NCBI GenBank assembly: GCA_004431415.1
Contig: QPMI01000535.1
Span: 186,001-250,000 of the forward strand
Origin: Cyanophora paradoxa CCMP329
Lineage: Eukaryota; Plantae; Glaucophyta
Direction of reading: 5' to 3'
DNA: 64,000 nucleotides
Below the pieces are notes generated by a model. That model made no database searches, had not been told where the DNA came from, and saw only the letters and a program-made list of their open reading frames with translations. Both the position numbers and the translations under genes were made by a program. Each line of letters begins with the position of its first letter. The first letter of the stretch is position 1. Of the stretch, positions 1-22,865 are shown in pieces.

Positions 1-3000
1 CCTGGTGCCGCAGGACCAGAAGATCGACCGGCGCCTCATCCGCGTGCGCAACATCAACACGGTGCGCGTTCTCGTGTCGATTTCCGCGACCCTTGTTTCG
101 TGTTGGGCTCCTTCGACGCGACCGGCAGGTCCCCTTGGGCGTGTGGGCCGCTTGGGTCGTCGACTCCAAGTTCTTCAACATCCTCGTCAAGTGCGCTTCG
201 TGAACGTAGTTTTGCCTCGCCCGTTCGATGCAGTTTCCTTTACGTCCCTTATCTTCCTCACCGCTTTCTTCTCCTCGGCCTCCAGTGCCGCCATCATTCT
301 GAACTGCGTGATGATGGGGATCCAAAGCGAGCTGAAGGTCCGCCTTTGCAGCAGCGGTTGCTCACGCGGCCAGCAGTCTTGCCCAGCGGCTGCTCACGCG
401 CGGGCGCCGCAGGACGAGGACTACATGGCGGTGCGCGTGCTCAGCATGGTCGACTACCACCTCCTCATCCTCTTCGCCATCGAAATCTTCCTCAAGGCCC
501 GCCCCCACCCCGCCCCGCCCGCCGCGCGCCGCCCAGCCGACGCTCCCTGGCTCCTCGCAGTGGATCGACAACTTCGAGAAGTTCTGGCAGAGCGGCTGGA
601 ACATCTTCGTGCGCGCCTCGCCGCCGCCTTCACGCCGCCGCCGCCGCCGCCGCGCGCCTGACGGCGGTCGCAGGACTTCCTCGTGACGTTCCTCTCCATC
701 ATACCCGAGATCATCGTCGCCGCCTCCGGCCCCAGTGCGCCCCGCGCGCGCGCCCCGCAGGCGTTGCGCGTCTGTTGCGGTTGACCGCGCCGCAGCGCGC
801 GCCGGCGACAAGAACGTCATCACCATCGTCGCGCGGCAGGCTCGCACGCCCGCCCCATCTTCCAAGGTGTGGGCAGCTGACGGCCGCGCAGATCCGGACC
901 TTCCGAGTCTTCCGAACGTTCAAGGTCGTCACGCGGTTCCGGAACCTAAAGATCATCGTCAGAACGGTCCTCGACGCCTTCGGGGTACGTGACTCTCTGC
1001 GCGGCCCGAGTGTACCCCTCGCTTCGCCGACGTACCCCGCAGCAATTCGGGTACATCGCGCTGCTGATGATGCTGCTCTTCTACCTCTACGCGGTACCCC
1101 TCTTTGTCTCGTCCTCGCCCATACCCCTCCGACGCCGCGGTTCCCCCGCAGGTCTTCGGCGTGGCGTCCTTCTCGTCCTACTCGGAGTCGAACATCCCGG
1201 GGCTGAACTACCAGCACAAGTTCTCGTGCGCCGGGCCCGCCGTCTCTTCCGAGCGGACGGGCACCGGATGACGGGACCGGCAGCGATTTCGGGGCGGCAA
1301 TGTTGACGCTGTTCCAAATGCTTACCCTCGACCAGTGGTACAAGTGCGCGTTCTGTGTGCCCAGCTTTACGCCGATCGCCGCTGAGAACGCGGTGCGGTG
1401 GCCAGGATGTGCATGGAGATATCGAAGTACACTGTGGCGCCGATCACGATCGTCTACTTCATGACGTGGGTGTGGATCGGCGCGTTCATTTTCCGCAACA
1501 TCTTCATCGGTGTCATGGGTCCGCGCCGCCCCCGCCCGGCTGCGCCCGCGAGCGATCGCCGACGGGAGCGCAGTGCGGAACTTCCGGGCGATCAGCGCGG
1601 AGCTGGCGAAGCAGGCGAAGGACGAGGCGAAGAAGCGCAAGCTCGAGCGGATGCTGAAGAAGCTCAACCAGCGCTTCAGGAACCGCGACGGGGCGACGGC
1701 GCCGGGCGAGGGCCCGGCGCTCTCGGCGAACCTGCTCGAGGCGCTGAACAAGGGCGGGGACGCCGGGAGCCAGGCGGAGAGCCAGGTCGGCAGCCAGGCG
1801 GGGAGCCAGCGGCAGGCCGACGACGACGCGCCGGCCAGCGTCTCCGACGAGGCCAGCCGCCCCGCCGTTCTCGTGGCCGCGGCGGGGGCTGACCGGCGCT
1901 GGGGCGGGCGTGCGCAGGGCGGGAAGAAGCAGAAGCCGGAGTCGAAGAAGGGGGTCGGCTTCGCGGCGGCCGACGAGGTGGACGAGCCCCGCGCGAAGCT
2001 CGCCGGTGCGGCAGCGGCCACGCTCTCGCCCCTCCCCGCTCGCCGGCGCTGACACGGGCGGGCAGCGTGGGTTCGGAACCAGGAGCCCGGCCCGCCGCCG
2101 CCAATGACGGACCGGGCGGTCGCGGCGGAGCGGGAGGGGCTGGAGGGGGCCAAGGCGGCCATCGCCCAGCCGGGCAGCGGGGCGCTGAGCGTCGGGGCGG
2201 GGAGCGGGCCGGCGAGCGGCGCGCTGCAGTCGCTGGGGCCGGACGCGGAGAGCTTCCGCCCGAACCGGCGCGGCAGCGTCCAATTCGGAGCTTCGGCGTC
2301 GCCCGTGGCTGCTGTGAGCTCCGACCCGGCGCTGGGGACGCGGAAGCGGGGCGGGCTGAAGAAGACGGCGGCTGTGGGGGCGTCGGGCACGCCGGCGGGC
2401 GTGGAGTGGGGCCCGACGACGACAGCGGAGGCGAACCCGCCGACGCGGCGCGAGGAGGACGGGACGCCCGTCGAGGGCGGCCTCGCATCGTCGGCTGCGA
2501 TGGCGCCCGTGGCGGCGGCGGCGGCCGCGGCGGCCGCGGGGCCGTCGAGCAAGAGCCCCGAGGGCGACAAGAGCCCGGAGCCATCGCCGCCGGAGTCGAA
2601 GCGGGAGTCGCCGGTGCCGGACGGGCGGGCGAGCAAGGCGAGCTTCGCGAGCGCCGGCGAGGAGGGCAAGAAGAAGAAGTCGGCGCGCTTCGGGCCCGCC
2701 GAGGACGACCCGCCCCGCGCCTCCTCTCCGGTCCCCGCCAAGAAGGGCGTCAGCAGCATCCGGTCCGCCCTCGCCCCCCGGCCCCCGCCCCCGAGCGCCC
2801 AGTCCAGTTGGTTGACGCCCACGCAGCTTCTCGAACGCGGACGAGGAGGAGAAGAGGGACGAGGAGATTCCGGCGCCGGCTGCCGGCTCGGACGACGGCG
2901 CCGGGGCGGGCGCGGGCGGGTCGGACGAGGAGGGGAGCGTGGACCCCGCCGAGGCGATGCTCTCCAAGTGCGCTCCGCTGCGCGGCGGGGCCTAGACCGA

Positions 3001-3445
3001 GCTCCCGTGCTCAAGTCTCGCGCGCAGGCTGAACGCGGGGCGGGGGGCGGCGGAGGGCATCGACGCGTTCACGCACGAGCGGTGGGCGCGGGAGCAGGAC
3101 GACATCGCGGACGTGATCGCGACGGTCGCCGCGTACAAGAAGGAGACCCTGTGGCCTCGGTGCGCCGGGGCGGGGGCGGGGGCGGGGGCGGGGGGCGGGG
3201 CTGAGGGGGCGGGGCTGAGGGGGCGGGGCGGGGCGGGGGCAGGGACACGCTGTTCGCGTACCTGCAGTCGATGGAGGGGCTGATGGAGGTCATCCGCGAG
3301 CACGAGGAGCTCATGCAGCTCGCCTGTGCGCCCCCGCGCCCCCCGCCCCGCCCCGCCCCGCCCCGCTCGGAAAGGCATTCACCCGCGCCGCTCACCGACC
3401 CGCCCCGCAGCGATGGCGCTTGTCGGGCTCCACGACACGGACTAG
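1..3445 (+). CDS. CATSPER2: CatSper-family 6TM cation channel alpha subunit, CATSPER2-like, copy 1 (5' end outside window; multi-exon)
   Basis: Spliced exons give S1-S3 (AIILNCVMMGIQSEL; YHLLILFAIEIFLK-WIDNFEKFWQSGWNIF-DFLVTFLSIIPE), S4 RQIRTFRVFRTFKVVTRFRNLK, S5 FGYIALLMMLLFYLYAVFG, pore FQMLTLDQWYK and S6 YFMTWVWIGAFIFRNIFIGVMVRNF. The C-terminal WPRDTLFAYLQSMEGLMEVIREHEELMQLA resembles the CATSPER2 WPRDSLFRYFELLEKL motif as recalled. Stop TAG at 3443-3445. Confidence 0.88.
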
Positions 3446-4367
3446 CCTCTTGCTGTCCCTTCGTACTCCTTTCGTATGTTTCTCTAGATAGCTTCCTTTC
3501 GCATGTGTTCCTGCGAGTCGCTTCAGCATCGTTTTCTGTTTTCGGGGGGGAGGGTCCTTTCAGTGCGCCTGTGCTGTCTGTAACTACGCAAGTATGCTGC
3601 GTGCCGTGTGGCACCGCATATATGCATGATTCTTGTATTAGTTGTTTATAATAAGTAAACAGTGCGGTAGCATGTCGTAGGACATGACAGGCAAGCGCGC
3701 GCGCTCGTCGAGCAATTGCAAACGTCGGAGTGCTCGAGGCCACTATACTATGATAGGCCTGAGCCCTTGCCAGTTGGCGACGAGGTCTTGATCATGAATA
3801 AGATCAGCCTGCGCATGCGCATGCGCAGCTGGCATGCGGAGCGCCGGCGCCGCGACCACACGCGCCAGGCGATGGGGTACTCTGTTTTGAAACCTGCTGC
3901 GTACCCCGCTCGGGCGCAAACGAGCTTTGATCCGCAGGCTCACCGGCCCTGGATTCCCCGCAGGCTCTCGCAGGCTAGCGGCGTCCCAGCAACTTTGGTG
4001 AGCCAAGTTCAGCAACGAGCTCTCCCTCCGGGGCGGCGCTAGGCCGCCGCTAGCTATCGATTGAATTGATTCAGTCGGCCGCGGCACCGCCGGGTGCGCG
4101 GCGCGGATCGGAGGCCGCGCATCGCCTTTGCGCTCTTTAGCTTTATCTGTAGCTAAGTCATCGCAGCAACGCCCTAGCTACGTGGTGCAGCGGCCCAGGC
4201 CCCAGGACTACGTGGTGCAGCGGCCCAGGACGGTCTCGGCGGCAACGCACTGACAGCCCGAGCAATCCGCAGCCCCAGGGCCTCTCGGGTCTAGAGCAGC
4301 ATTTCGTATCAGCTGCTCGCACGCTCAGACTTCAGCATCGGAGGCGCAGTCTGTTGTCGACATCAAA

Positions 4368-5661
4368 ATGGGCTCCAGCTGCTCCCGGGCGCCCCGCGTG
4401 GGAGCGGATGATGCGTACAGAGCGCCTGCGATTCCGGAAGCGCCCGCCAAGGCGCCGCCCTCGCCCCCGCCGCCCGTTGCGTCGATCGGCGCGAGCCCGA
4501 CGGCCCCGACCGCCGCGGCACCCGCGATCCTGCCCGTGGCGACGCCGGCGACGCCATCTCATCAGAAGCCGCCGACAGCGCCCTCGCCCAAGCCGCCCTC
4601 GCACCCCTCCCCAAAGCCGCCTGTGAAGCGGACGCCGTCGATGCAGCAGCGGACGCCGTCGATGCGGCGGCGCGCGGGGACGGCGCGCTCGGGCGACGGC
4701 AACTCGACGGGCCAGTCGGAGAGCGAGTACGAGGCGGAGGAGGCGAGCCTGGTCCCCTCGGAGCTCATCGGCGCCGCCCCGGGCCTCTACACCCTCGCCT
4801 CGGGCCGCTGGCGCGTCTCCCGCCGCGGCAGCGTCCCCCGGCGCGTCAAGGACGTCCGGGGCATCGCCGATCTCGCGCAGGGCCTCGCCAACGGCTCGTT
4901 CTCGATACCCCGGCCCGCCATGGAGGACGGGTCCTTCCGCTCGGCCGGGCGCTCCCCCCACTCCAGCCTGCGCCGCCCGGGCGGCTCCGGCTCCCAGCGC
5001 CGCCGCAACGGATCCTCCAAGGTGCCCCCACCCGCACTCTTCCACTCACTTTGTCCTACCCCCCTCTCATTATCGAACTGCATTCCCCCCTCGCGGAGCA
5101 GAAGAACACAATGCTGAAGGACCTGGCTGCGTTCGCTTACGTCTCCGGCTCGGAGATGGAGAACACGGGGGGTGAGACTGACGTCGAGTACAACGGTTGC
5201 GCCGTACCCGTCCGCCGCCCGCGCGCGTCGTGCCTGGAAATGACGTACCCGGGGGCGGTGCAGCCGGAGGGGGGGCGACCCACGGAGACGGGACGGAGGA
5301 GGAGGCACTCGCGGCGGCGCCGGGCCCTGCCGAGGGCATGGCTCCCCTCCCACGGGTCCGCCGCCGCCGCCGCCTCGCCCCGCCCCGCCCCGCCCCGCCC
5401 CGCCCCGTCCGCCGGCTCTACGGGAAGTCCTAGCGCCCTTCAGGGGAGCCCAGCGGAGGCCCTGTCAGATCGTTGGGAGATTAACAGTGGGAAGCAGCAT
5501 CTGCGCTTGCGCTGTCTGACATAAGAGGCGCTTCCTGCGGGCAGGCGTGCGCGGCGGAGGAGCTGGAGGTGGGGGAGGAGTCGCGGGCGGCGCCGCTCCT
5601 CGCCCACGACGACCGCTTCTGCTACATCGCCGAGACCGGCGCCTGGCGCCGCCTCCGATAG
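4368..5661 (+). CDS. Orphan Pro/Ser-rich protein with N-terminal MGSSCS dual-acylation-like motif (about 4 exons)
   Basis: The ORF from ATG 4368 continues through GT-AG introns (about 5022-5101, 5196-5263 and 5355-5544) to ...HDDRFCYIAETGAWRRLR* at 5659-5661. No recognisable domain. Confidence 0.55.
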
Positions 5662-6385
5662 GCCTAGCTAGGCCCTGGGCCGATCGGAGGCGCACGCACG
5701 CACGTACGTGCGCCAGGGGGCCTAGGCCTAGGCCTCAACACCTGCCGTCGTCGCGCGTGTTGTTCTCGCAGTTAGTGCTCTAGCTAGTGCTAGTATCGTT
5801 ATAATGGTCGGTACGGTGCGCGTCCGCGCGTGAGGCACGCCGACTCAGCCACGTGCACACTAGATAACTAGTCTGTAGTATATATCGATTCTAGATCTAG
5901 TACTAGATTGAAGTAGATCATTGACTAGTACTGCTTCTACGCAGCCTTGCTTAAGCTTCGGATTGCATGAATATTAGTATTGAATATTTAATTGCGCATG
6001 CAATTGCAATTGCAACTACCTCGTCCGTCGTACAGAATCTTAGCCTGCAAGCATATACTACAGCAACATGCAGTCATCTTCAAGACTGCTAATTATATAT
6101 AATTATAGCCAGCACCTTGGGTGCGCACTAGGAAAAATTAGCTAGAGAACGGCTACGCGCGACGCGCAAGCCGGACTAAACTGAAAAGCTCAGCTGCGAA
6201 TGGAAGCAAAAAGGGACCCCTCGATCCCCAAACGGGAAAGCATGAAGCGGAAAGGAAACACAGTGCGGAGAAGGGAAGGGGGCATGCGGAACAGTGAGTA
6301 GGGGGCGGGTGGGGCGGTGTGCGGGAGGGGAGCACGACCCGCCGGGAGCTGGGGAAAGGCAAAAGGCGGCGGGGCCGGCCCTGGG

Positions 6386-7357
6386 CTAGTAGAAGACAGC
6401 TCCGTCCTGCAGGGTCCGACCGGCCGGTCGCGGCCGCGCGACCCGCGCCGGCCCGCGCGTGCGGGGCCGCCGCCGCCGCCGCCCACGCCCCCGCCGGCGT
6501 CGCCGGCCTCCTCCCCTCCCTCCTCCTCGTCCTCCACGCCGGGGGCGAATGGCTCTCCGTCGGAGAACGAGACGCGGCGGCCGCCGAGGGACTCGCCGTC
6601 CGACGAGGACGATATGGACGCCCTCCTCACGCGGTCCGAGGGCGGGACGCGGAGAGAGGACCCCCGCTGCTGCTGAGGCGGCTGCGGCTGAAGCTGCGGC
6701 TGCGGCGGGGGCGAAGCGGCTGGCGCCGAGCGGGGGGCGGGGCGGGGCGGGGGCGGGACGAGGTCGGGGCCGCCTCGTCCTCCTCCGTGGGAGGCTTCTC
6801 GGCGCCCTTCTCGTCCTCGTCCTCATCCGAGTCGCCGCCCGCGACCAGCGGCGCGACGCGGGCCCGCGGTGGCCGCGCCAGGACGCCCGCGGCTCGGGCG
6901 TCGCCGGCTGCGAGGCCGAGGCCGCCCCGCGGCCGCGGCGGAGGGCTCTGGAGGACGAAGGCGCGCTCGACGGCGCAGGGCCTCTTCGGGGACGGGGAAG
7001 GGGGTGGAAGGCGGCCTGTGCTTCCTGCGCGGGCGCTCGCTCGGGCGGCGGCGCAGCGGAGCGGCGCGAAGCGAAGCGGGCGCACCCGAACGAGACGCGG
7101 AGCCGCTTGAGGAGCGCCAGCGGGGAGAGCTTGGACTTGGGGCGGGATCCCGCGGAGCCGGCGCCCGCCCCGTCCGCCGCCGCCGGCGACGCCGCCGACG
7201 CGTCCGAAGAGGATCGAGCTCCGCCAGAGCCCCTCGCCTCCACGTCCACGACTGCTCGGGTCTCAGCACGCGTCCCCTTCGAACCCAGCCGACAGGGCGG
7301 GGGCGGCGAACCGAGCGGCGCAGCAAGCGCGCCAGACGATCTGGACAGTCTTCGCAT
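6386..7357 (-). CDS. Orphan low-complexity Ser/Arg/acidic protein (multi-exon)
   Basis: ATG at 7357 (MRRLSRSSG...), exon-like segments GGDSDEDEDEKGAEKPPTEEDE and RRASISSSSDGESLGGRRVSFSDGE, and last exon cag|DGAVFY*. The exon chain is not fully resolved. Confidence 0.4.
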   Translation of the reverse strand: MRRLSRSSGALAAPLGSPPPPCRLGSKGTRAETRAVVDVEARGSGGARSSSDASAASPAAADGAGAGSAGSRPKSKLSPLALLKRLRVSFGCARFASRRSAAPPPERAPAQEAQAAFHPLPRPRRGPAPSSAPSSSRALRRGRGAASASQPATPEPRASWRGHRGPASRRWSRAATRMRTRTRRAPRSLPRRRTRRPRPRPAPAPPRPPLGASRFAPAAAAASAAAASAAAGVLSPRPALGPREEGVHIVLVGRRVPRRPPRLVLRRRAIRPRRGGRGGGRGGGRRRRRGRGRRRRRPRTRGPARVARPRPAGRTLQDGAVFY

Positions 7358-8008
7358 GGCGAATGTGTCGCTGTCTGTAACCGCGGTGCTGATTGCGAAG
7401 GCCGTGCGTAATCGACAGGCCGCACAGGGCGATCCCCCGTCGACAGGAAATCTTAGACACACTTGGGCAACTGCTGGAACTTCAAGATTGCTCCATGCCG
7501 CCCTGCCAGCTGCTCCAACGCTCAGATCTAGACATGACTAGCTCCAACCGCCGACGTCGATCGACGCCCGCCGAGCGGCAGTCAGTTCCTCGGCCGTTCT
7601 ATAGCTCGACAGGCTGCGCTATCGAAGCTTCCTGCGATCACAAGCTAGCTCTAACAACTAAGGACATCTCGGCGATTCCGAAGTTCGACGCCACCCGCCA
7701 TGCAGCGCCCGGTCCACGCTTCTGGCTCCGAATGACGAAGCTTTGCAATTTGCTCGAAGTCTCAATAGCCAAGAAGCACAAGTACCCCCAAGGTCGGGGG
7801 GGGGGGGTAAAGTCGATGCAAGCGCTAGTACAAGTACTAGTAGTCCACGCTGCCTGCTTAAGCTTACTCTACTTCAAAGCTTAATCTAATATTAATGGAT
7901 CGCCGTGCACACTGTGGGACGCATCGCTCACGAAATGCAAGCACTACGTCTATACGAAAACGACGTCGTCGACCGCAAAAGCTGACTAACTGGGCTCACC
8001 ACGGCACG

Positions 8009-11000
8009 TCACTCGGAGTCGTGGAGCCCGACAAGCGCCATCGCTGCGGGGCGGGGCGGTGATCATGAGCGGCGCCGTGGATGCCTTTCCGAGCGGGGCG
8101 GGGCGGGGCGAGGTGGGGGGCGCGGGGGCGCACAGGCGAGCTGCATGAGCTCCTCGTGCTCGCGGATGACCTCCATCAGCCCCTCCATCGACTGCAGGTA
8201 CGCGAACAGCGTGTCCCTGCCCCCGCCCCGCCCCCTCAGCCCCGCCCCCGCCCCCGCCCCCGCCCCCGCCCCGCGCACCGGGGCCACAGGGTCTCCTTCT
8301 TGTACGCGGCGACCGTGGCGATCACGTCCGCGATGTCGTCCTGCTCCCGCGCCCACCGCTCGTGCGTGAACGCGTCGATGCCCTCCGCCGCCCCCCGCCC
8401 CGCGTTCAGCCTGCGCGCGAGACTTGAGCACGGGAGCCTCGGAGCTCGGTCTAGGCCCCGCTTCGCGTTGGTGCGCACTTGGAGAGCATCGCCTCGGCGG
8501 GGTCCACGCTCCCCTCCTCGTCCGACCCGCCCGCGCCCGCCCCGGCGCCGTCGTCCGAGCCGGCAGCCGGCGCCGGAATCTCCTCGTCCCTCTTCTCCTC
8601 CTCGTCCGCGTTCGAGAAGCTGCCGGCACGTGAGCCGCGGCAAGGCGCCGGCGCCGGGCGCTCGGGGGTGGGGGGCGGGGGCGGACCGGATGCTGCTGAC
8701 GCCCTTCTTGGCGGGGACCGGAGAGGAGGCGCGGGGCGGGTCGTCCTCGGCCGGCCCGAAGCGCGCCGACTTCTTCTTCTTGCCCTCCTCGCCGGCGCTC
8801 GCGAAGCTCGCCTTGCTCGCCCGCCCGTCCGGCACCGGCGACTCCCGGTTCGACTCCGGTGGCGACGGCTCCGGGCTCTTGTCGCCCTCGGGGCTCTTGC
8901 TCGACGGCCCCGCGGCCGCGGCCGCCGCCAGCGCCACGGGAGCCATCGCAGCCGACGATGCGGGGCCGCCTTCGACGGGCGTCTCCTCCTCCTCGCGCCG
9001 CGTCGGCGGGTTCGCCTCCGCTGTCGTCGTCGGGCCCCACTCCACGCCTGTCGGCGTGCCCGACGCCCCCGCAGCCGCCGTCTTCTTCAGCCCGCCCCGC
9101 TTCCGCGTCCCCAGCGCCGGGTCGGAGCTCACAGCCACCGTTGTCGTCCCGAACTGAACGCTGCCGCGCCGGTTCGGGCGGAAGCTCTCCGCGTCCGGCC
9201 CCAGCGATCGCAGCGCGCCGCTCGCCGGCCCGCTCCCCGCCCCGACGCTCAGCGCCCCGCTGCCCGGCTGGGCGATGGCCGCCTTGGCCCCCTCCAGCCC
9301 CTCCCGCTCCGCCGCGACCGCCCGGTCCGTCATCGGCGGCGGCGGGCCGGGTTCCTGGTTCCGAACCCACGCTGCCTGCCTGTGTCAGCGCTGGCGAGCG
9401 GGGAGGGGCGAGAGCGTGGCCGCTGCCGCACCGGCGAGCTTCGCGCGGGGCTCGTCCACCTCGTCGGCCGCCGCGAAGCCGACCCCCTTCTTCGACTCCG
9501 GCTTCTGCTTCTTCCCGCCCTGCGCACGCCCGCCGCAGCGCCGGTCAGCCCCGGCCGCGGCCACGAGAACGGCGGGCGGCTCGCCTCGTCGGAGACGCTG
9601 GCCGGCGCGTCGTCGTCGGCCTGCCGCTGGCTCCCCGCCTGGCTGCCGACCTGGCTCTCCGCCTGGCTCCCGGCGTCCCCGCCCTTGTTCAGCGCCTCGA
9701 GCAGGTTCGCCGAGAGCGCCGGGCCCTCGCCCGGCGCCGTCGCCCCGTCGCGGTTCCTGAAGCGCTGGTTGAGCTTCTTCAGCATCCGCTCGAGCTTGCG
9801 CTTCTTCGCCTCGTCCTTCGCCTGCTTCGCCAGCTCCGCGCTGATCGCCCGGAAGTTCCGCACTGCGCTCCCGTCGGCGATCGCTCGCGGGCGCAGCCGG
9901 TCGGGGGCGGCGCGGACCCATGACACCGATGAAGATGTTGCGGAAAATGAACGCGCCGATCCACACCCACGTCATGAAGTAGACGATCGTGATCGGCGCC
10001 ACAGTGTACTTCGATATCTCCATGCACATCCTGGCCACCGCATCGCGTTTTCAGCGGCGATCGGCGTAAAGCTGGGCACACAGAACGCGCACTTGTACCA
10101 CTGGTCGAGGGTCAGCAGCTGGAACAGCGTCAGCATTGCCGTGCCAAAGTTGCTGCGGGTTCCGTCATCCGGTGCCCGTCCGCCCGGAAGAGACGGAGGG
10201 CCCGGCGCACGAGAATTTGTGCTGGTAGTTCAGCCCCGGGATGTTCGACTCCGAGTAGGACGAGAAGGACGCCACGCCGAAGACCTGCGGGGGAACCACG
10301 GCGTCGGACGGGTACGGGCGCGGACGGCAGAGTCGGAGGGGTACCGCGTAGAGGTAGAAGAGCAGCATCATCAGCAGCGCGATGTACCCGAATTGCTGCG
10401 GGGTACGTCGGCGAAGCGAGCGCACTGTACGGCGCAGGGATTCCCGTACCCCGAACGCATCGAGGATTGTTTTGATGATGACGCGCAAGTTCCGGAACCG
10501 CGTGACGACCTTGAACGTTCGGAAGACTCGGAAGGTCCGGATCTGCGCGGCCGTCAGCCGTCCACGCCTTTGAAGATTGGGAGGGCGTGCGAGCCTGCCG
10601 CGCGACGATGGTGATGACGTTCTTGTCGCCGGCGCGCGCTGCGACGCGGTCAACCGCAACAGACGCGCAACGCCTGCGGGGCGCGCGCGCGGGGCGCACT
10701 GGGGCCGGAGGCGGCGACGATGATCTCGGGTATAATGGAGAGGAACGTGACGAGGAAGTCCTGCGGCCGCCGTCAGGCGCGCGGCGGCGGCGGCGGCGGC
10801 GTGAAGGCGGCGGCGAGGCGCGCACGAAGATGTTCCAGCCGCTCTGCCAGAATCGCTCGAAGTTGTCGATCCACTGCGAGGAGCCAGGGAGCGTCGGCTG
10901 GGCGGCGCGCGGCGGGCGGGGCGGGGTGGGGGCGGGCCTTGAGGAAGATTTCGATGGCGAAGAGGATGAGGAGGTGGTAGTCGACCATGCTGAGCACGCG

Positions 11001-12538
11001 CACCGCCATGTAGTCCTCGTCCTGCGGCGCCCGCGCGTGAGCAGCCGCTGGGCAAGACTGCTGGCCGCGTGAGCAACCGCTGCTGCAAAGGCGGACCTTC
11101 AGCTCGGTCTGGATCCCCATCATGATACAGTTGATCAGAATCGCAGTGCTGCGAATAGGATTTGATGAGTATCTTGACGGATCGACTCGGATCGACGTCG
11201 ATGAACGCACTTGATAACATAGGTGAAGAACGTCGAATCCACAATCCACGCGGCCCAGACCCCGACGGGGAGCTGTGGCCGTAGGTCATGTGAGCAGAAA
11301 GTGGAATGCGAAACACACGTCGCGCAAATTGCAGACACGAGAACGCGCACCGTGTTGATGTTGCGCACGCGGATGAGGCGTCGGTCGATCTTCTGGTCCT
11401 GCGGCGCGCGGCGCGTTAACGTTGCAGCGGCGCGGCGCAGGCCGGCGGCGGGGCGATTGCTGACCTTGTCTGCAGCCGAGCGCTTGAAGATCTTGAAGCG
11501 GACGAGCTGCGTCGGCTTCTCGAACAGCACCTTCGTCATCAGCTTCTCGTCTGCCGCGCGCGTCGACAGCGGCGGCGCGGCGGCGCGCGGCGCGCGGCGG
11601 CGGCGGCGGCGGCGGACCGCGGACGACCTCCGTGGAGGAGTACTGGGGCGCGTTCTCGCTGTTCTCCTCCAGGATCTCGTCCTTCAGGCGGAACTCCTCA
11701 ATGATCTTCTCCCTGCGCCGCCGCCGTCAGCGGCCGTGCTCCAGCACGGGTGTCCACGGGGACGTGGCACGTAGCTGCGTACCGGAAGACAGCGGCGCGG
11801 CTCGAGAGGTCGCGGAAGACCTCCTGCCTGAGCACGTCGCCCTTGGCGGACGGCTCCGGCTTCGGCGTGTGCGCGTAGACTGTGGGCGGCGGCGCAGCCC
11901 CGAAGATGGACGCGATGTCCACTGCATGCGGATCGGCAGATGCCCCTGGGGTTACGGGACAACGGGAAGCGCACCTCCGACACTGGACTCCGAGTTCATT
12001 ACGGCCAGCACGGGGGCGACGCGGCCGGTGCTCTCCTTGTGCTTAGCAAGGACTGTATCCTATCGTAGCGCGTTAGCTAGCGCTTGATAAGGGAAGCCGG
12101 CGCCAATCGAAGCCCAGGGCGCGGTGCGCATGGAGGGGGCGGCACCGAGAAGGTCGGAAGCGGCGGCCCGAGCGTGTGCATGCGGTCCAAAACGACCCCC
12201 GCAGGCCGAGGCACCGCGCCTCCAGCTGACGAACCGGGCACCCTTGCCGTCCCCTGTCCATGGTCGTCATCGCCTTTCGTGCGCGAGAACAAGCCATGCA
12301 GCTTCTTGGACGCTTGGGCGAAGAACCCGTCGTCAGTGCGCGACGGCCGGCGCCCCGGCGAGGTTGCCGACAGGCCGGCAGTGGAAGGACGCCTCGTCTC
12401 GACCTCATCGCCCCGCGCGCTGAGCTGACGGCTGCTGGGGCGAACGACCTGCAACGGTGCAACCAGAGGCGTTCTGCTGGCCGGCTGTGCGTCGCGGCGC
12501 CGCCGGGACGACAGCGGTCCGCCGCGCGAGCTCGACAT
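8009..12538 (-). CDS. CATSPER2: CATSPER2-like channel alpha subunit, copy 2 (full length, multi-exon)
   Basis: Same exon chain as copy 1 plus N-terminal exons (MSSSRGG...; EVFRDLSSRAAVFR; IIEEFRLKDEILEENSENAPQYSSTEV; ADEKLMTKVLFEKPTQLVRFKIFKR). Pore FQLLTLDQWYK; ends ALVGLHDSE* at 8009. Confidence 0.87.
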
Positions 12539-12960
12539 TTGCCAGTGCTTCAGGGTATCTCGGGTGCAAGCACGCCTCTAGAGGACACTCCTGAACCGCG
12601 AAGAGATAGCTAGCGCCATAGGCAAGTACAGAGGCTCATGATGCGTCCGTGCCCAGCCCTGGTGCCAAACAGTATGGCCGTGCTGCGACGCTGAATGGCA
12701 GCGGACGCTGGTAGAGGATAGCGACCGCTCTCTGGTTGGCCTCTCTTCGATTTGGGAGCAGAATTGGTATACGTGCGTGCGAACGCAGCGTCCTGTACCC
12801 AGACGCTACGCCCTGAAGTTGGGCGGCGCCTGTGCGTCTGACGTGCGCCAGGCATAATTCATGCATGACCCCTGCATCTATCTGAACTAGACGTAGTAAT
12901 CTACCTGTAGCTACCTATAGCTACTACTTCCTACGCTCGCCCAACACGTTCACGTCACTG

Positions 12961-15797
12961 TTACTCGGAGTCGTGGAGCCCGACCAGCGCCATCGCTGCG
13001 GGCCGGGGCGGTGAGCGCTAGCGGCGCCGGTGGATGCCTTTCCGAGCGGGGCGGGGCGGGGCGGGGCGGGGGGCGCGGGGGCGCACAGGCGAGCTGCATG
13101 AGCTCCTCGTGCTCGCGGATGACCTCCATCAGCCCCTCCATCGACTGCAGGTACGCGAACAGCGTGTCCCTGCCCCGCCCCGCCCGCCCCTCAGCCCCGC
13201 CCCTCAGCCCGCCCCCGCCCCGCCCCCGCCCCCGCCCCGGCGCACCGAGGCCACAGGGTCTCCTTCTTGTACGCGGCGACCGTCGCGATCACGTCCGCGA
13301 TGTCGTCCTGCTCCCGCGCCCACCGCTCGTGCGTGAACGCGTCGATGCCCTCCGCCGCCCCCCGCCCCGCGTTCAGCCTGCGCGCGAGACTTGAGCACGG
13401 GAGCCTCGGAGCTCGGTCTAGGCCCCGCTTCGCGTTGGAGCCCACTTGGAGAGCATCGCCTCGGCGGGGTCCACGCTCCCCTCCTCGTCCGACCCGCCCG
13501 CGCCCGCCCCGGCGCCGTCGTCCGAGCCGGCAGCCGGCGCCGGAATCTCCTCGTCCCTCTTCTCCTCCTCGTCCGCGTTCGAGAAGCTGCGTGGGCGTCA
13601 ACCAACTGGACTGGGCGCTCGGGGGCGGGGGCCCGGGGCCGGGGGCGGACCGGATGCTGCTGACGCCCTTCTTGGCGGGGACCGGAGAGGAGGGGCGGGG
13701 CGGGTCGTCCTCAGCCGACCCGAAGCGCGCCGACTTCTTCTTCTTGCCCTCCTCGCCAACGCTCGCGAAGCTCGCCTTGCTCGCCCGCCCGTCCGGCACC
13801 GGCGACTCCCGGTTCGACTCTGGTGGCGACGGCTCCGGGCTCTTTTCCCCCTCGGGACTCTTGCCGGCCGGACCGAAGCGCGCCGACTTCCTGGCCCCGG
13901 CGGCGGGCGGCGACGGCTGCTCCGTCGCTCCTCCCATGGGCGCGGGCGTCCCGTCCTCCTCGCGCCGCGTCGGCGGGTTCGACTCCACGCCCGTTGGCGT
14001 GCCCGATGTCGACGCCCCCGCAGCCGCCGTCTTCTTCAGCCCGCCCCGCTTCCGCGCCCCCAGCGCCGGGTCGGAGCTGACAGCCACCGTTGTCGCCCCA
14101 AACTGAACGCTGCCGCGCCGGTTCGGGCGGAAGCTCTCCGCGTCCGGCCCCAGCGATCGCAGCGCGCCGCTCGCCGGCCCGCTCCCCGCCCCGACGCTCA
14201 GCGCCCCGCTGCCCGGCTGGGCGGTGGCCGCCTTGACTCCATCCCCCCCCTCCCGCTCCGCCGCGACCGCCCGGTCCGTCATCGGCGGCGGCGGGCCGGG
14301 CTCCTGGTTCCGAACCCACGCTGCCTGCCTGTGTCAGCGCTGGCGAGCGGGGAGGGGCGAGCGAGCGGGGAGGGGCGAGAGCGTGGTTGTTGCCGCACCG
14401 GCGAGCTTCGCGCGGGGATCCTCGACCTCGTCGGCCGCCGCGAAGCCGACCCCCTTCTTCGACTTCGGTCTCTGCTTCTTCCCGCCCTGCGCACGCCCGC
14501 CGCAGCGCCGGTCAGCCCCGGGCGCGGCCACGAGAACGGCGGGGCCGCTCGCCTCGTCGGAGACGCTGGCCGGCGCGTCGTCGTCGGCCTGCCGCTGGCT
14601 CCCCGCCTGGCTGCCGACCTGGCTCCCCGCCTGGCTCCCGGCGTCCCCGCCCTTGTTCAGCGCCTCGAGCAGGTTCGCCGAGAGCGCCGGGCCAGCGGCG
14701 TCGCCTGCTTGTTCTGCGCGCTCTCGGTTCTTGAAGCGCTGGTTGAGCTTCTTCAGCATCCGCTCGAGCTTGCGCTTCTTCGCCTCGTCCTTCGCCTGCT
14801 TCGCCAGCTCCGCGCTGATCGCCCGGAAGTTCCGCACTGCGCTCCCGTCGGCGATCGCTCGCGGGCGCAGCCGAGCGGGGGCGGCGCGGACCCATGACAC
14901 CGATGAAGATGTTGCGGAAGATAAACGCCCCGATCCACACCCATGTCACGAAGTAGAAGATCGTGATTGGGCCGATGGTGTACTTGGTTATCTCCATGCA
15001 CATCCTGCTTGCGTTTTCAGAGGCCGATTGACATCCGGCTATAGCTAGCGCTGGGCAATCAGAACACGCACTTGTACCACTGGTCGAGGGTCAAAAGCTG
15101 GAACAGCGTCAGCATTGCCGTGCCAAAGTTCCTGTGAAATGTACCATTAAAAATGAATGCTCGCTGCATTGGTTCACATACGATTGACGCACGAAAATTT
15201 GTGCCGGAAAAGGAGTCCAGGAAGGGCTGATTCCGAATAGGACGAGAAGGACGCCACGCCGAAGACCTGCGGGGGAACCGCGGCGTTGGAGGGGTATGGG
15301 CGCGGACGGCAGAGGCGGAGGGGTACCGCGTAGAGGTAGAAGAGCAGCATCATCAGCAGCGCGATGTACCCGAATTGCTGAGGGGTACGTCAGCGAAGCG
15401 AGGGGTACACTCGGGTCGCGGCAGAGAGTCGCGTACCCCGAAGGCGTCGAGGACCGTTCTGACGATGATCTTTAGGTTCCGGAACCGCGTGACGACCTTG
15501 AACGTTCGGAAGACTCGGAAGGTCCGGATCTGCGCGGCCGTCAGCCATCCACGCCTTCGAAGATGGGGCGGGCGTGCGAGCCTGCCGCGCGACGATGGTG
15601 ATGACGTTCTTGTCGCCGGCGCGCGCTGTCGGGCGAGTGGTCAATCGCAACGGGCGCGCAACGCCGGCGGGGCGCGCAACGCCTGCGGGGCGCGCGCGCG
15701 GGGCGCACTGGGGCCCGAGGCGGCGACGATGATCTCCGGTATGATGGAGAGGAAAGTCACGAGGAAGTCCTGCGGCCGCCGTAAGGCGCGCGGCGCA

Positions 15798-15829
<32 letters not shown>

Positions 15830-16590
15830 GCGCGCACGAAGATGTTCCAGCCGCTCTGCCAGAACTTCTCGAAGTTGTCGGCCCACTGCGAGGGGCGAGG
15901 GAGCGTTGGCGCGGCGACGCGCGGCGGGCGGAAGGGGCGGGGGGGCGGGCCTTGAGGAAGATCTCAATGGCGAAGAGGATGAGAATCATGTAATCCATGA
16001 TGCTTAGCACACGAACCGTCATGTAATCCTCGTCCTGCGGCGTGTAAAAGAGGCATACGTTGCGATGATGCATCTAGCTATAGATTCAGGTTCGCACTTT
16101 TAGATCAACTTGGATCCCCATCGTCAGGCAGTTGATCAGAATTGCAATGCTGCGGATTCGAAACGCCGCCTTAATGTTGATTAGACGGCCATGGGACGCA
16201 ATGGCGCACTTGACTACACGCGAGAAGATCGTCGAATCCACAACCATCCCCGCCCAGACCCCAACGGGGAGCTGTGGCCGTATATATGTCATGTGAGCAG
16301 AGGGTGCGACGCGAAACACACGTCGCGGAAATTGCAGACACGAAAAAGAGCACCGTGTTGATGTTGCGCACGCGGATGAGGCGCCGGTCTATCTTCTGAT
16401 CCTGCGGCACCAGGCGCGTGGGTGCGGTGGCTCGCGGGCAGGTGGCGGCGCCGGCCGGCGGCGGGACGGACCTTGTCTGCAGCCGAGCGCTTGAAGATCT
16501 TGAAGCGGACGAGCTGCGTCGGCTTCTCGAACAGCACCTTCGTCATCAGCTTCTCGTCTGCCGCGCGCGTCGACAGCGGCGGCGCGGCGC

Positions 16591-16624
<34 letters not shown>

Positions 16625-17564
16625 ACCGCGGACGACCTCCGTGGAGGAGTACTGGGGCGCGTTCTCGCTGTTCTCCTCCAGGATCTCGTCCTTCAGGCGG
16701 AACTCCTCAATGATCTTCTCCCTGCGCCGCCGCCGTCGACGTCAGCGGCCGTGCTCCAGCGCGGGCGCCCACGGGGACGTGGCACGTAGCTGCGTACCGG
16801 AAGACAGCGGCGCGGCTCGAGAGGTCGCGGAAGACCTCCTGCCTGAGCACGTCGCCCTTGGCGGACGGCTCCGGCTTCGGCGTGTGCGCGTAGACTGTGG
16901 GCGGCGGCGCAGCCCCGAAGATGGACGCGATGTCCACTGCATGCGGATCGGCAGATGCCCCTGGGGTTACGGGACAACGGGAAGCGCACCTCCGACACTG
17001 GACTCCGAGTTCATTACGGCCAGCACGGGGGCGACGCGGCCGGTGCTCTCCTTGTGCTTAGCAAGGACTGTATCCTATCGTAGCGCGTTAGCTAGCGCTT
17101 GAGAAGGGAAGCCGGCGCCAATCGAAGCCCAGGGCGCGGTGCCACGGTGCGCAGGGAGGGGGCTGCACCGAGAAGGTCGGAAGCGGCGGTCCGAGCGCGT
17201 GCATGCGGTCCAAAGCGACCCCCGCAGGCCGCGGCACCGCGCCTCCAGCCGACGAACCGGGCACCCTTGCCGTCCCCTGTCCATGGTCGTCATCGCCTTT
17301 CGCGCGCGAGAACAAGCCATGCAGCTTCTTGGACGCTTGGGCGAAGAACCCGTCGTCAGTGCGCGACGGCCGGCGCCCCGGCGAGGTTGCCGACAGGCCG
17401 GCAGTGGAAGGACGCCTCGTCTCGACCTCATCGCCCCGCGCGCTGAGCTGACGGCTGCTGGGGCGAACGACCTGCAACGGTGCAACCAGAGGCGTTCTGC
17501 TGGCCGGCTGTGCGTCGCGGCGCCGCCGGGACGAGACGAGCGAAGCGCCGCGCGAGCTTGGCAT
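12961..17564 (-). CDS. CATSPER2: CATSPER2-like channel alpha subunit, copy 3
   Basis: ATG at 17564 (MPSSRGAS...), all TM exons present, pore FQLLTLDQWYK, S6 FYFVTWVWIGAFIFRNIFIGVM, stop TAA at 12961-12963. Confidence 0.87.
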
Positions 17565-18089
17565 CGAGCTGAGGCGCTCAGCTAACCGGCGCCTATGACG
17601 TGCTATGCCATAGATGCTGCGGATGCGGTGCTTTAGCGGATCCTCTAGATCTCGGGCGCGACTTCGCCGCGCGTCGCGCAGGCCCGCCGCGGCCGCGCAG
17701 CCGGTGCTTGACGGGGGTGTCAAACGCGCCCGCCTCAGCGGCAGGCCAGCTAACGCTGCAACCTTGGCAAAGCTTAGATAGGCGACTTTGGATGGTGCTC
17801 AGCCGGGTCGGCAGATGGCGCCGGCTGACGGCAGCTACGCAAAGTTGACGTACCCCGGCCGACGACCTTTCAATTATCGGTGAAATTTCATAATCATAGT
17901 AAAATTAATTGCTGCAGTCAAAAGATTGAATTACGGCCCGGCGCGGTACCCGGGCGGGTGGCGCCGGTGCGGGGAGCCAGGGCCCTGGGGGTACGCAGAA
18001 TACGACAGCAAGCTAGCGCTTCGAATTCGCCGCAGGAAGTTCGCTCGCCGCCGCAGCGCCGCCGGCCGCGGGCCGCCGGCACGTCGACG

Positions 18090-21000
18090 TCACTCGGAGT
18101 CGTGGAGCCCGACAAGCGCCATCGCTGCGGGGCGGGGCGCCGGCGGTACAGGTGAGCAGCGCCGGCGCGGGTCGATGGCTTCCCGAGCGGGGCGGGGCGG
18201 TGCGGGGGGCGCACAGGCGAGCTGCATGAGCTCCTCGTGCTCGCGGATGACCTCCATCAGCCCCTCCATCGACTGCAGGTACGCGAACAGCGTGTCCCTG
18301 CCCCCGCCCCGCCCCGCCCCCTCAGCCCGCCCCCTCAGCCCCGCCCCCCGCCCCCGCCCCCGCCCCCGCCCCGGCGCACCGAGGCCACAGGGTCTCCTTC
18401 TTGTACGCGGCGACCGTCGCGATCACGTCCGCGATGTCGTCCTGCTCCCGCGCCCACCGCTCGTGCGTGAACACGTCGATGCCCTCCGCCGCCCCCCGCC
18501 CCGCGTTCAGCCTGCGCGCGAGACTTGAGCACGGGAGCCTCGGAGCTCGGTCTAGGCCCCGCTTCGCGTTGGAGCCCACTTGGAGAGCATCGCCTCGGCG
18601 GGGTCCACGCTCCCCTCCTCGTCTGACCCGCCCGCGCCCGCCCCGGCGCCGTCGTCCGAGCCGGCAGCCGGCGCCGGAATCTCCTCGTCCCTCTTCTCCT
18701 CCTCGTCCGCGTTCGAGAAGCTGCCGAAGCGTGAGCCGCGGCGAGGCGCCGGCGCCGGGCGTTTGGGGCGGGGGCCGGGGGCGGACCGGATGCTGCTGAC
18801 GCCCTTCTTGGCGGGGACGGGGGAACCGGCGTCGGCGCGGGGCGGGTCGTCCTCGGCGGGCCCGAAGCGCGCCGACTTCTTCTTCTTGCCCTCCTCGCCG
18901 GCGCTCGCGAAGCTCGCCTTGCTCGCCCGCCCGTCCGCCACCGGCGACTCCCGTCCGGTACCGGCGACCTTCTTGGCGGGGACCGGGGATCCGGAGCTCG
19001 AGCCGGCTTCGAATTCTGCGCGGGGCGGGTCGTCCTCGACCGGCTTAAAGCGCGCCGACTTCCTGGCCCAGGCGGCGGGCGGCGACGGCTGCTCCGTCGC
19101 TCCTCCCATGGGCGTCCCGTCCTCCTCGCGCCGCGTCGGCGGGTTCGACTCCACGCCCGTCGGCGTGCCCGATGTCGACGCCCCCGCAGCCGCCGTCTTC
19201 TTCAGCCCGCCCCGCTTCCGCGTCCCCAGCGCCGGGTCGGAGCTGACAGCCACCGTTGTCGTCCCGAACTGAACGCTGCCGCGCCGGTTCGGGCGGAAGC
19301 TCTCCGCGTCCGGCCCCAACGACTGCAGCGCGCCGCTTGCCGGCCCGCTCCCCGCCCCGACGCTCAGCGCCCCGCTGCCCGGCTGGGCGATGGCCGCCTT
19401 GGCCCCCTCCAGCCCCTCCCGCTCCGCCGCGACCGCCCGGTCCGTCATCGGCGGCGGCGGGCCGGGTTCCTGGTTCCGAACCCACGCTGCCTGCCTGTGT
19501 CAGCGCTGGCGAGCGGGGAGGGGCGAGCGAGCGGGGAGGGGCGAGAGCGTGGTTGTTGCCGCACCGGCGAGCTTCGCGCGGGGATCCTCGACCTCGTCGG
19601 CCGCCGCGAAGCCGACCCCCTTCTTCGACTTCGGTCTCTGCTTCTTCCCGCCCTGCGCACGCCCGCCGCAGCGCCGGTCAGCCCCGGGCGCGGCCACGAG
19701 AACGGCGGGCGGCTGGCCTCGTCGGAGACGCTGGCCGGCGCGTCGTCGTCGGCCTGCCGCTGGCTCCCCGCCTGGCTGCCGACCTGGCTCCCCGCCTGGC
19801 TCCCGGCGTCCCCACCCTTGTTCAGCGCCTCGAGCAGGTTCGCCGAGAGCGCCGGGCCAGCGGCGTCGCCTGCTTGTTCTGCGCGCTCTCGGTTCTTGAA
19901 GCGCTGGTTGAGCTTCTTCAGCATCCGCTCGAGCTTGCGCTTCTTCGCCTCGTCCTTCGCCTGCTTCGCCAGCTCCGCGCTGATCGCCCGGAAGTTCCGC
20001 ACTGCGCTCCCGTCGGCGATCGATATCGCGCGCCGTTTCAGCCGGGCGGGACCGAAACGTACTCATGACACCGATGAAGATGTTGCGGAAGATAAACGCC
20101 CCGATCCACACCCATGTCACGAAGTAGAAGATCGTGATTGGGCCGATGGTGTACTTGGTTATCTCCATGCACATCCTGCTTGCGTTTTCAGGGGCCGATT
20201 GACATCCGGCTATATATAGCTAGCGCTGGGCAATCAGAACACGCACTTGTACCACTGGTCGAGGGTCAAAAGCTGGAACAGTGTCAGCATTGCCGTGCCA
20301 AAGTTCCTGTGAAATGTACCATTAAAAATGAATGCTCGCTGCATTGGTTCACATACGATTGACGCACGAAAATTTGTGCCGGTAAAGGAGTCCAGGCAGG
20401 GCTGATTCCGAGTACGATTCGAACGACGCGACTCCAAAGACCTGAGCGGGTGCACATGTGCATGTACACATGGCGTCATCAATATCACAGAGGTCATGCG
20501 TAAGCGAGGTGTATACGTAGGCGTCGCGGCATACCGCATAAAGATAGAACAGCAGCATCATGAGGAGACAGATGTACCCAAATTGCTGCGAAAGCACACC
20601 TCTGAGATCTAGAATACCACCACAGAATTCGAAGCACGCGTATATGTCGACGTCGTGCTAGAGTTAAACGTATGTATGTACATACGCTGAATGCGTCAAA
20701 TACGGTCCGGATGATGAGGCGAAGGTTCCGAAACCGAGTGACGACTTTAAATGCACGGAACACGCGAAATGTTCGAATCTGAGCGAATGCCACGTAGATC
20801 ATCTCGTTGTGCAACTTGCTGGTGGAAATACAAATGGATTGTGGACAAACCTGCCGTGCGACAATGGTGATGATACTCTGATCCCCGGCACGTTCTTTGG
20901 GTGGTTGAATCTATATATCAGCGCGCGCAACGTCGGCGGGGGCCGCGGGGCGCACTGGGGCCCGAGGCGGCGACGATGATCTCCGGTATGATGGAGAGGA

Positions 21001-22865
21001 ACGTCACGAGGAAGTCCTGCGGCCGCCGTAAGGCGCGCGGCGCAGCGGCGGCGGCGGCGGCGGCGGCGGCGAGGCGCGCACGAAGATGTTCCAGCCGCTC
21101 TGCCAGAATCTCTCGAAGCTATCGAGCCACTGCGAGGACGGGCGTTGGTGCGAAGCGGCGCGTGCACGGGCGGAAGGCCTAGGGGCGGGGTGGCGGGCCT
21201 TGAGGAAGATTTCGATGGCGAACAGGATGAGGATCATATAATCCATGATGCTCAGCACACGGGCCGTCATGTAATCCTCGTCCTGCGAATTCGAATGGTG
21301 ACGGTTGCAGTGAATATCACTTCGAATACGTCCATTGCCGAATTCAAGTTCGCACTTTAAGCTCGGTCTGGATCCCCATCGTCAGGCAGTTGATCAGAAT
21401 TGCAATGCTGCGGATTCGAAACGCCGCCTTAATGTTGATAAGACGGCCATGGGACGCAATAGCGCACTTGACTACACGCGAGAAGATCGTCGAATCCACA
21501 ACCATCCCCGCCCAGACCCCAACGGGGAGCTGTGGCCGTAGGTCATGTGAGCAGAAAGTGGAATGCGAAACACACGTCGCGCAAATTGCAGACACGAGAA
21601 CGCGCACCGTGTTGATGTTGCGCACGCGGATGAGGCGCCGGTCTATCTTCTGGTCCTGCGGCACCAGGCGCGTGGGTGCGGTGGCTCGCGGGCAGGTGGC
21701 GGCGCCGGCCGGCGGCGGGACGGACCTTGTCTGCAGCCGAGCGCTTGAAGATCTTGAAGCGGACGAGCTGCGTCGGCTTCTCGAACAGCACCTTCGTCAT
21801 CAGCTTCTCGTCTGCCGCGCGCGTCGACAGCGGCGGCGCGGCGGCGCGCGGCGCGCGGCGGCGGCGGCGGCGGCGGACCGCGGACGACCTCCGTGGAGGA
21901 GTACTGGGGCGCGTTCTCGCTGTTCTCCTCCAGGATCTCGTCCTTCAGGCGGAACTCCTCAATGATCTTCTCCCTGTGCCGGCGCCGTCATGATCAGCGG
22001 CCGTCAGCGGCGCAGGCGGGGCCTATGGTTGCGGACCGGAAGACAGCGGCGCGGCTCGAGAGGTCGCGGAAGACCTCCTGCCTGAGCACGTCGCCCTTGG
22101 CGGACGGCGCCGGCTCCGGCGGGTGCGCGTAGACGGTGGGCGGCGGCGCTGCCCCGAAGATGGACGCAAGGTCCACTGCAAAATTCGGTGGCATCGGAGT
22201 CAGATGAGTCACGCAGCGTGGCACGGGGCGGCGGGAAGCGCACGTCCGCTCGCGAGGGACGGCGCGAAGGAAGAACCGGCCTCCGAATTCACGAGCGCCA
22301 GCATCGGAGCTACACGCCCCGCGCTCTCCCTGTGCTTGGCGAGCACAGCCTCCTGCCGAGGCCCGGCGGCGCGCGCGTTAGCTTGCGCTCGAGTAAGGGG
22401 ATCCGGAGCCGGCGCCAATCGAAGCCCAGGGCGCGGTGCGCAGGGATTTGGAGGGGGCTGCACCGAGAAGGTCGGAAGCGGCAGCCCGAGCGCGTGCATG
22501 CGGTCCAAAGCGACCCCCGCAGGCCGCGGCACCGCGCCTCCAGCCGACGAACCGGGCACCCTTGCCGTCCCCTGTCCATGGTCGTCATCGCCTTTCGCGC
22601 GCGAGAACAAGCCATGCAGCTTCTTGGACGCTTGGGCGAAGAACCCGTCGTCAGTGCGCGACGGCCGGCGCCCCGGCGAGGTTGCCGACAGGCCGGCAGT
22701 GGAAGGACGCCTCGTCTCGACCTCATCGCCCCGCGCGCTGAGCTGACGGCTGCTGGGGCGAACGACCTGCAACGTTAACGGTGCAACCAGAGGCGTTCTG
22801 CTGGCCGGCTGTGCGTCGCGGCGCCGCCGGGACGAGACGAGCGAAGCGCCGCGCGAGCTTGGCAT
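18090..22865 (-). CDS. CATSPER2: CATSPER2-like channel alpha subunit, copy 4
   Basis: ATG at 22865, S4 QIRTFRVFRAFKVVTRFRNLRLIIR, S5 FGYICLLMMLLFYLYA, pore FQLLTLDQWYK, WPRDTLF C-terminus, stop at 18090. Confidence 0.87.

Follow-up and report, generated by a model that had tools for sequence, protein, structure and literature searches.

A patchwork array of four CATSPER2-type calcium channel genes in the glaucophyte Cyanophora paradoxa

CatSper is the 'sperm' calcium channel, and animals keep its subunit 2 as a single gene. What, then, might a glaucophyte do with several copies of it side by side? The window analyzed here, 64,000 nucleotides of Cyanophora paradoxa CCMP329 (tig00021038; GenBank contig QPMI01000535.1, positions 186,001 to 250,000), holds four CATSPER2-type genes, A, B, C and D, in positions 1-22865, and a homologue search finds a fifth outside the array, tig00000444_g794 (g794). 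With five CATSPER2-type genes, C. paradoxa departs from the one-gene-per-pore-subunit rule of animal sets. We give a probability of about 0.55 to the reading that A-D are open-frame CATSPER2 paralogues, old and patched by gene conversion, that would serve as alternative versions of the CATSPER2 subunit in an ordinary flagellar Ca2+ channel of four subunits. CatSper in glaucophytes has already been published (PMC10120453; 10.1101/2020.08.17.240366), and its presence in C. paradoxa itself is known. New, as far as our literature search reaches, are the five CATSPER2 genes, their two deep lineages and the placement of four of them in a gene-converted array.

A six-frame scan of the window finds four TLDQW pore filters, at 1324-1338 on the plus strand (A) and at 10098-10112 (B), 15077-15091 (C) and 20252-20266 (D) on the minus strand, and self-BLAST resolves four blocks within 1-23068 with 82-92% nucleotide identity. 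Copy A (14-3445, plus strand) faces B across a unique spacer of 4.6 kb, after which B (8009-12538), C (12961-17564) and D (18090-22865) lie head to tail on the minus strand. The 3' flanks of the copies are unrelated in all six pairs. Exon models were built for B by hand from its splice signals and then transferred to A, C and D by alignment. A common plan of 24 exons fits every copy, with no internal stop and no frameshift in any of them. B, C and D are complete and encode 1009, 1007 and 1027 amino acids, and A, whose exons 1-5 lie before base 1, contributes exons 6-24 and 747 amino acids to the window. All 87 introns are either GT-AG (76) or GC-AG (11), and their acceptors read CAG in 84 cases, TAG in two and AAG in one, which is D intron 11, before exon 12. 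The GC donors sit at conserved positions (introns 9, 12 and 18, with D intron 12 changed to GT), and intron lengths range from 52 to 111 nt. An altered genetic code (table 6) was tried and set aside, the standard code already yielding open frames.

The first-pass annotation, made from the sequence alone, had described four apparently intact paralogues, each with a charged S4, a TLDQW filter and a WPRDTLF motif near the C-terminus. This description stands for all four copies, with A partial in the window, and WPRDTLF spans the exon 22/23 junction in each. The proteins are 86-95% identical in pairs; the N-terminal variants that had been quoted correspond to a DTVL form in B and C and an EAVL form in D. 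Public models (EukProt, reached via an in-frame stretch of B) correspond to A (g17518), B (g17521) and C (g17522), whereas D is represented publicly by two half-models, g17523 and g17524. Because of this split and the sole AAG acceptor among the 87 introns, D is the least certain copy. The public models are imperfect, that of B lacking S2, and the genes are therefore annotated but incorrectly described.

Could the four copies be uncollapsed alleles, or an artefact of assembly? The first-pass annotation had named read depth as the evidence that might expose this. We compared short-read contigs of three DNA runs (X1, X2 and X9) with the window and read depth per contig among the listed pieces, since summed depth, as the tool itself warns, is not copy number. 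Contigs of the unique spacer have depths of 56-65 in X1 and 51-60 in X2, and unique contigs in X9 have 56-94. At a similar level, an A-specific contig (49-357) matches the window with no difference in two runs (depth 53 in X2, 93 in X9), as does a D-specific contig (20353-20973) at depth 77 in X1, whereas contigs collapsed over common tracts reach 107-163 in X1 and X2. A further contig (12482-13029) spans the C-B junction, from the end of the one gene to the start of the other, again with no difference. The inverted orientation of A, the unrelated 3' flanks and introns that are merely 24-35% alike between some copies also argue against an artefact. For an artefact speak the single-base indel errors in the assembly nearby (6441-7795, in three DNA runs), the D-C junction, which is absent among the listed pieces, the lack of a listed contig across the whole array, and the DNA runs themselves, which may share their strain with the assembly. 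On balance the paralogy holds, and alleles or misassembly are a very unlikely account of A-D. The indels appear as one-base insertions relative to the window at 6441, 6862, 6977-6999 and 7795 in each of the three runs and are likely assembly errors; they may disrupt the frame of a gene in the spacer, and none is listed inside CATSPER2 exons.

Structural matches identify the copies as CATSPER2. The best single-domain match in the PDB is mouse CATSPER2 (7eeb_B, E 7.7e-52), and no CATSPER1, 3 or 4 chain occurs among the best 60 of 153 matches. For both halves of D, CATSPER2 is the first PDB match, and this holds for the N-terminal domain and for the C-terminal helix as well. Residues 48-153 of P0044 (copy D) align to residues 12-116 of mouse CATSPER2, and a search with this N-terminal domain returns five PDB matches, the top two being CATSPER2 and none a CATSPER1, 3 or 4 chain. 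The C-terminal WPRD(T/S)LF helix is present in all four copies and aligns to mouse residues 546-587. Pfam Ion_trans scores above its cut-off over one stretch in each of the three public models, S1-S6 are present in the four hand-built models, and S4 carries five R/K per 17 residues in all four copies and in g794. The array proteins thus share with mouse CATSPER2 (7EEB chain B; 9UBW chain B) a single six-transmembrane domain, a T-x-D-x-W filter, a charged S4, a CATSPER2-type N-terminal domain and a C-terminal WPRD(S/T)LF helix. They differ from animal CATSPER2 in about 200 extra amino acids at the N-terminus, in a low-complexity linker of about 380 amino acids, in having M-x-V for Q-x-N, and in TLDQW for TLDHW, Q being the common protist state and TLDQW the dominant filter motif among protist CATSPER2 matches. 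The difference in number is plainer still: one gene there, five in the C. paradoxa genome.

Phylogeny leads to the same identification. A quick maximum-likelihood tree was computed from 69 membrane-core rows, a chosen subset of the matches that comprises the four window copies, 31 other CATSPER2-type proteins, 20 of CATSPER1 type and 14 Cav domains, with CATSPER3 and CATSPER4 not included. In it the four copies form one clade (support 100) within a glaucophyte CATSPER2 group (99), itself within CATSPER2 (100). The CATSPER2 side of 35 rows stands apart from CATSPER1 and Cav with a Shimodaira-Hasegawa-like approximate likelihood ratio (SH-aLRT) support of 100, and both the four-copy clade and the glaucophyte group recur in trees of 21 rows. 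The earlier proposal of a CATSPER2-like identity, which a tree placing the copies outside the CatSper clade would have overturned, is thereby confirmed against CATSPER1 and Cav. Bacterial Nav, EukCat and Cav identities were considered and dropped, each scoring lower per domain or falling outside the clade.

How does the array relate to g794? Over conserved columns the two are 48-49% identical, and the array is 53-54% identical to P0017, a glaucophyte protein whose sequence agrees with that of a Gloeochaete wittrockiana CatSper in the supplement of PMC6509283. Since g794 is only 48-49% identical to it, the array represents a second, deep CATSPER2 lineage. g794 and P0017 lie in the same glaucophyte CATSPER2 clade as the array (100/99) and have its TLDQW filter and S4 charge count. 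In the 21-row trees, g794 pairs with P0017 (98/95 under a plain model, 87/84 under a mixture model), and the array is sister to this pair (100/99) on a long stem of 0.42-0.64. An approximately unbiased (AU) test of the alternative grouping of array and g794 is equivocal (p 0.04 under the plain model, 0.18 under the mixture model); the clade tested was named after the first tree had been seen, and P0017 lacks its N-terminus. By these comparisons the split between array and g794 is deep, and it may precede or follow the Cyanophora-Gloeochaete split. The published count of five CatSpers in Gloeochaete (PMC6509283 Data S1) would fit an old duplication.

Within the array, the copies are mosaics of one another. 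B equals C in exons 2-3, where D differs; C equals D in exon 7; A equals B in exons 9 and 17-19; A, B and C are identical in exons 12 and 14, where D differs; A equals C in exon 13; and exon 23, which encodes the C-terminal helix with M-x-V (8134-8216, minus strand, in B), differs at none of its 83 bases among the four. Identity of the introns in common ranges from 0.24 to 1.00, and the nearest partner changes along the gene. Permutation tests of the longest identical run at third-position and intron sites give p ≤ 0.002 in all six pairs, and the differences among copies are clustered (p about 1e-4). Private tracts with synonymous differences of 0.6-0.8 adjoin tracts with none. Because such near-saturated patches adjoin identical tracts, the copies are likely an old array under interlocus gene conversion. 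The first-pass annotation had spoken of a local amplification; a simple recent one is likely not what happened, and an old array homogenised patch by patch describes the locus better.

The clearest private tract covers exons 12-15 of D (20368-20894, minus strand), which encode S4, the S4-S5 linker, S5 and the turret. Synonymous difference reaches 0.69-0.72 in exons 12-14, with a non-synonymous difference of 0.06-0.11, and GC content at third codon positions (GC3) is 0.55-0.65, compared with mostly 0.84-1.0 in the other copies. Parts of C (exons 8 and 15) show the same low GC3, against about 0.9 elsewhere. These low values may mean that the tracts have escaped GC-biased conversion or that codon choice in them has relaxed.

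The ratio of non-synonymous to synonymous substitution rates (dN/dS, NG86), which the first-pass annotation had suggested estimating, is 0.11-0.21 for the membrane core in all six pairs, indicating purifying selection, and 0.26-0.75 in the low-complexity linker. Positive selection was looked for and rejected, as non-synonymous difference (pN) exceeds synonymous difference (pS) in no segment. Against a set of 69 homologues, picked as single-domain matches, in which 103 columns are conserved in at least 75%, only three of the 63 variable aligned columns fall on conserved positions. Divergence peaks in S1-S2, the S4-S5 linker, the turret and outer S6, and is near nil in the N-domain of B, C and D (no amino-acid change in 77 codons), in the post-S6 helix and in the C-terminus (0-3 changes in 129 codons). 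The public N-terminus of A is more distinct than those of the other copies.

Transcript contigs confirm the gene model of B. Runs X17, X19 and X20, from two samples, are presumed to be RNA, none of the listed runs being recorded as such. In all three, the contigs skip the introns of B at the predicted sites, with no other letters in the listed pieces, so that the model is confirmed over these pieces and joints. X19 and X20 each yield one contig of 3362-3488 nt that extends from the leader through to the 3' end and agrees with B wherever A and B differ. The leader of B (12539-12768, minus strand) is continuous with exon 1 in RNA contig pieces ending at 12758 or 12768 (12145-12758/12768) and is unlike the DNA upstream of C or D. 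C and D have in common an upstream stretch (17565-17759 and 22866-23068, minus strand; 183 identities, 3 mismatches and 26 gap positions) that is likely a promoter or leader. No RNA contig covers A-specific exons, C-specific exons or the middle of D, although contigs drop rare variants and cannot prove silence.

Together these features suggest the following history. An early duplication would have produced g794 and the array lineage, the latter then being copied locally into the head-to-tail series D-C-B plus the inverted A. Conversion since then would have allowed the copies almost no divergence in the cytoplasmic N-domain, the post-S6 helix and the C-terminal helix, and we propose that any copy would therefore dock with the same partners. 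Gating, or contacts with auxiliary subunits, would be slightly shifted by the old differences that persist in S1-S2, the S4-S5 linker, the turret and outer S6. Separate promoters, one for B and one common to C and D, would govern the choice among the copies, and each array protein, or g794, would thus fill the single CATSPER2 position of a predicted heterotetramer. Of the two arrangements offered by the first-pass annotation, interchangeable subunits is our best inference, whereas a tetramer made entirely of CATSPER2 finds no positive support: four CatSpers are published for the species, and Data S2 of PMC6509283 prints a C. paradoxa protein that by eye resembles human CATSPER3. Other alpha subunits are thus reported for the species, and in mouse knockouts all four CatSper alpha subunits proved to be needed (PMC2572835).

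Several observations weigh against this proposal. The Q-x-N of the presumed assembly helix is lost in all four copies and kept by g794, which could mean different partners. No C. paradoxa protein is found among the best 120 of 307 CATSPER1 matches. The low GC3 of D inflates its synonymous distance. The variable residues need not be adaptive, because the same positions vary among homologues, and uniform termini can arise from the placement of conversion alone, without selection. Finally, spliced RNA supports B alone; two D-specific RNA pieces, of 298 and 178 nt at depth 2-4, show no splicing and could derive from DNA.

The transcript pattern lends itself to another explanation, in which B, with g794, does the work, and the other three copies, A, C and D, are redundant or decaying passengers, their reading frames held open chiefly by conversion that overwrites them. 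At every site where A and B differ, spliced contigs of two studies agree with B, the private tract of D combines GC3 decay with an unusual AAG acceptor, and the primate CATSPER2 duplicate has turned into a pseudogene (PMC2572835). Yet D exons 12-14, which conversion has left alone, remain in frame with their splice sites and S4 charges intact, at a pN of 0.06-0.11 against a pS of about 0.7, the private exons 7, 8 and 16 of A differ mostly conservatively, and not one of the copies has a stop or frameshift. We therefore regard passengers as a doubtful explanation, and their silence is not something that contigs can establish.

The C-terminal helix raises a different prospect. The array copies all depart from the homologues at six conserved columns, four by conservative changes and two by the change of Q-x-N, whose Q is 85% and N 95% conserved among the 69 homologues, to M-x-V. 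g794 and P0017 keep Q-x-N, unlike the array, and g794 loses eight other conserved columns, three in the same helix, where it lacks the D and F of WPRDTLF. A review suggests that the C-terminal coiled coil may mediate subunit interaction (PMC11057403), while its density in cryo-electron microscopy is unassigned (PMC9205950). Because the helix changes differ and the coiled coil may mediate such contacts, the array and g794 lineages may differ in partners. Carried further, the array would have left the canonical channel, with g794 in the CATSPER2 slot and A-D forming a CATSPER2-type-only channel or standing in for a lost alpha subunit. The pairing of g794 with P0017, which leaves the array as an extra lineage on its long stem, would agree with this, as would a helix made more hydrophobic by M-x-V in all four copies, the linker of about 380 amino acids, rich in A/G/P/S, that precedes it and, weakly, the lack of a C. 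paradoxa protein among the listed CATSPER1 matches. However, the array copies retain 92-94% of the 103 conserved columns, on a par with g794 at 92%, and g794 has helix losses of its own; the AU test is equivocal; the literature counts four CatSpers for the species (PMC6509283); and the filter sequence is the one found in ordinary protist CATSPER2. We consider such a departure distinctly unlikely. Its boldest form is a long shot: g794 would have freed the array from the 1-2-3-4 heterotetramer, and the hydrophobic helix, held by conversion, would let A-D co-assemble as a Ca2+ channel of one subunit type. If true, nature would offer a homomeric CatSper, whose pore might be the first of its kind amenable to heterologous expression; that would make it a major tool.

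Alternative occupancy of the CATSPER2 slot, the reading we prefer, bears on how CatSper evolves. Cai and Clapham (PMC2572835) argue that strict four-subunit assembly makes further duplicates useless and leads to their decay; in animals the complex is kept without further duplication, and a primate CATSPER2 duplicate has decayed. That duplicate is likewise a local duplication of subunit 2, but in C. paradoxa the four copies are open and their membrane-core dN/dS is 0.11-0.21. Five open CATSPER2 genes, four of them under purifying selection, thus provide a counterexample in a culturable flagellate. Data S1 of PMC6509283, which cites Cai et al. 2014 as the source of protist CatSper sets, counts four CatSpers in C. 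paradoxa, five in Gloeochaete and nine in Allomyces macrogynus. Extra alpha copies are thus on record for the latter two, but the rows consulted assign no subunit to them and mention no local array, conversion or five CATSPER2 genes. Our literature search yielded no report of a CATSPER2 array in Cyanophora; most subscription journals were outside its scope, and Cai et al. 2014 may note extra copies. The array is also a natural experiment, in which uniform cytoplasmic docking parts are combined with S1-S2, S4-S5 linker and turret regions that tolerate change. Because CatSper has so far resisted functional heterologous expression (PMC5362262), a protist with spare, partly re-wired pore subunits would be a useful test system.

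Elsewhere in the window, the spacer into which the 3' ends of A and B converge (3446-8008), covered by single-copy DNA contigs, likely holds two unrelated public models, judged by gene numbering; two of its frames, compared with Pfam, gave no match. Another duplicated gene pair, at 56212-58746 and 61502-64000 (+/+), has 86% DNA identity and proline-rich frames without a Pfam match, and local duplication may therefore be common in the C. paradoxa genome. A weak F-box-like match (E 0.001, under the Pfam cut-off) lies at 43979-44563 on the plus strand. Repetitive low-complexity coding stretches occupy 28254-28836, 30159-31705 and 43019-43458; the region 28029-29246 reads as an Ala/Arg-rich repeat, and 30139-30639 looks Lys/Glu-rich.

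The homologue searches also returned CATSPER1- and CATSPER2-type proteins (P0005, P0006, P0009, P0011, P0014, P0016, P0240, P0251, P0252, P0255 and P0264) from Rhodelphis, Ploeotia, Fabomonas, Cantina, Lapot, Diphylleia, Ancoracysta, Nonionella and a model named Mesvir1; CatSper thus occurs in more protist groups than the handful commonly named. One further protein, P0095 (893 amino acids), joins a CATSPER1-like and a CATSPER2-like domain; it probably arose by the merging of gene models, though it may be a true fusion.

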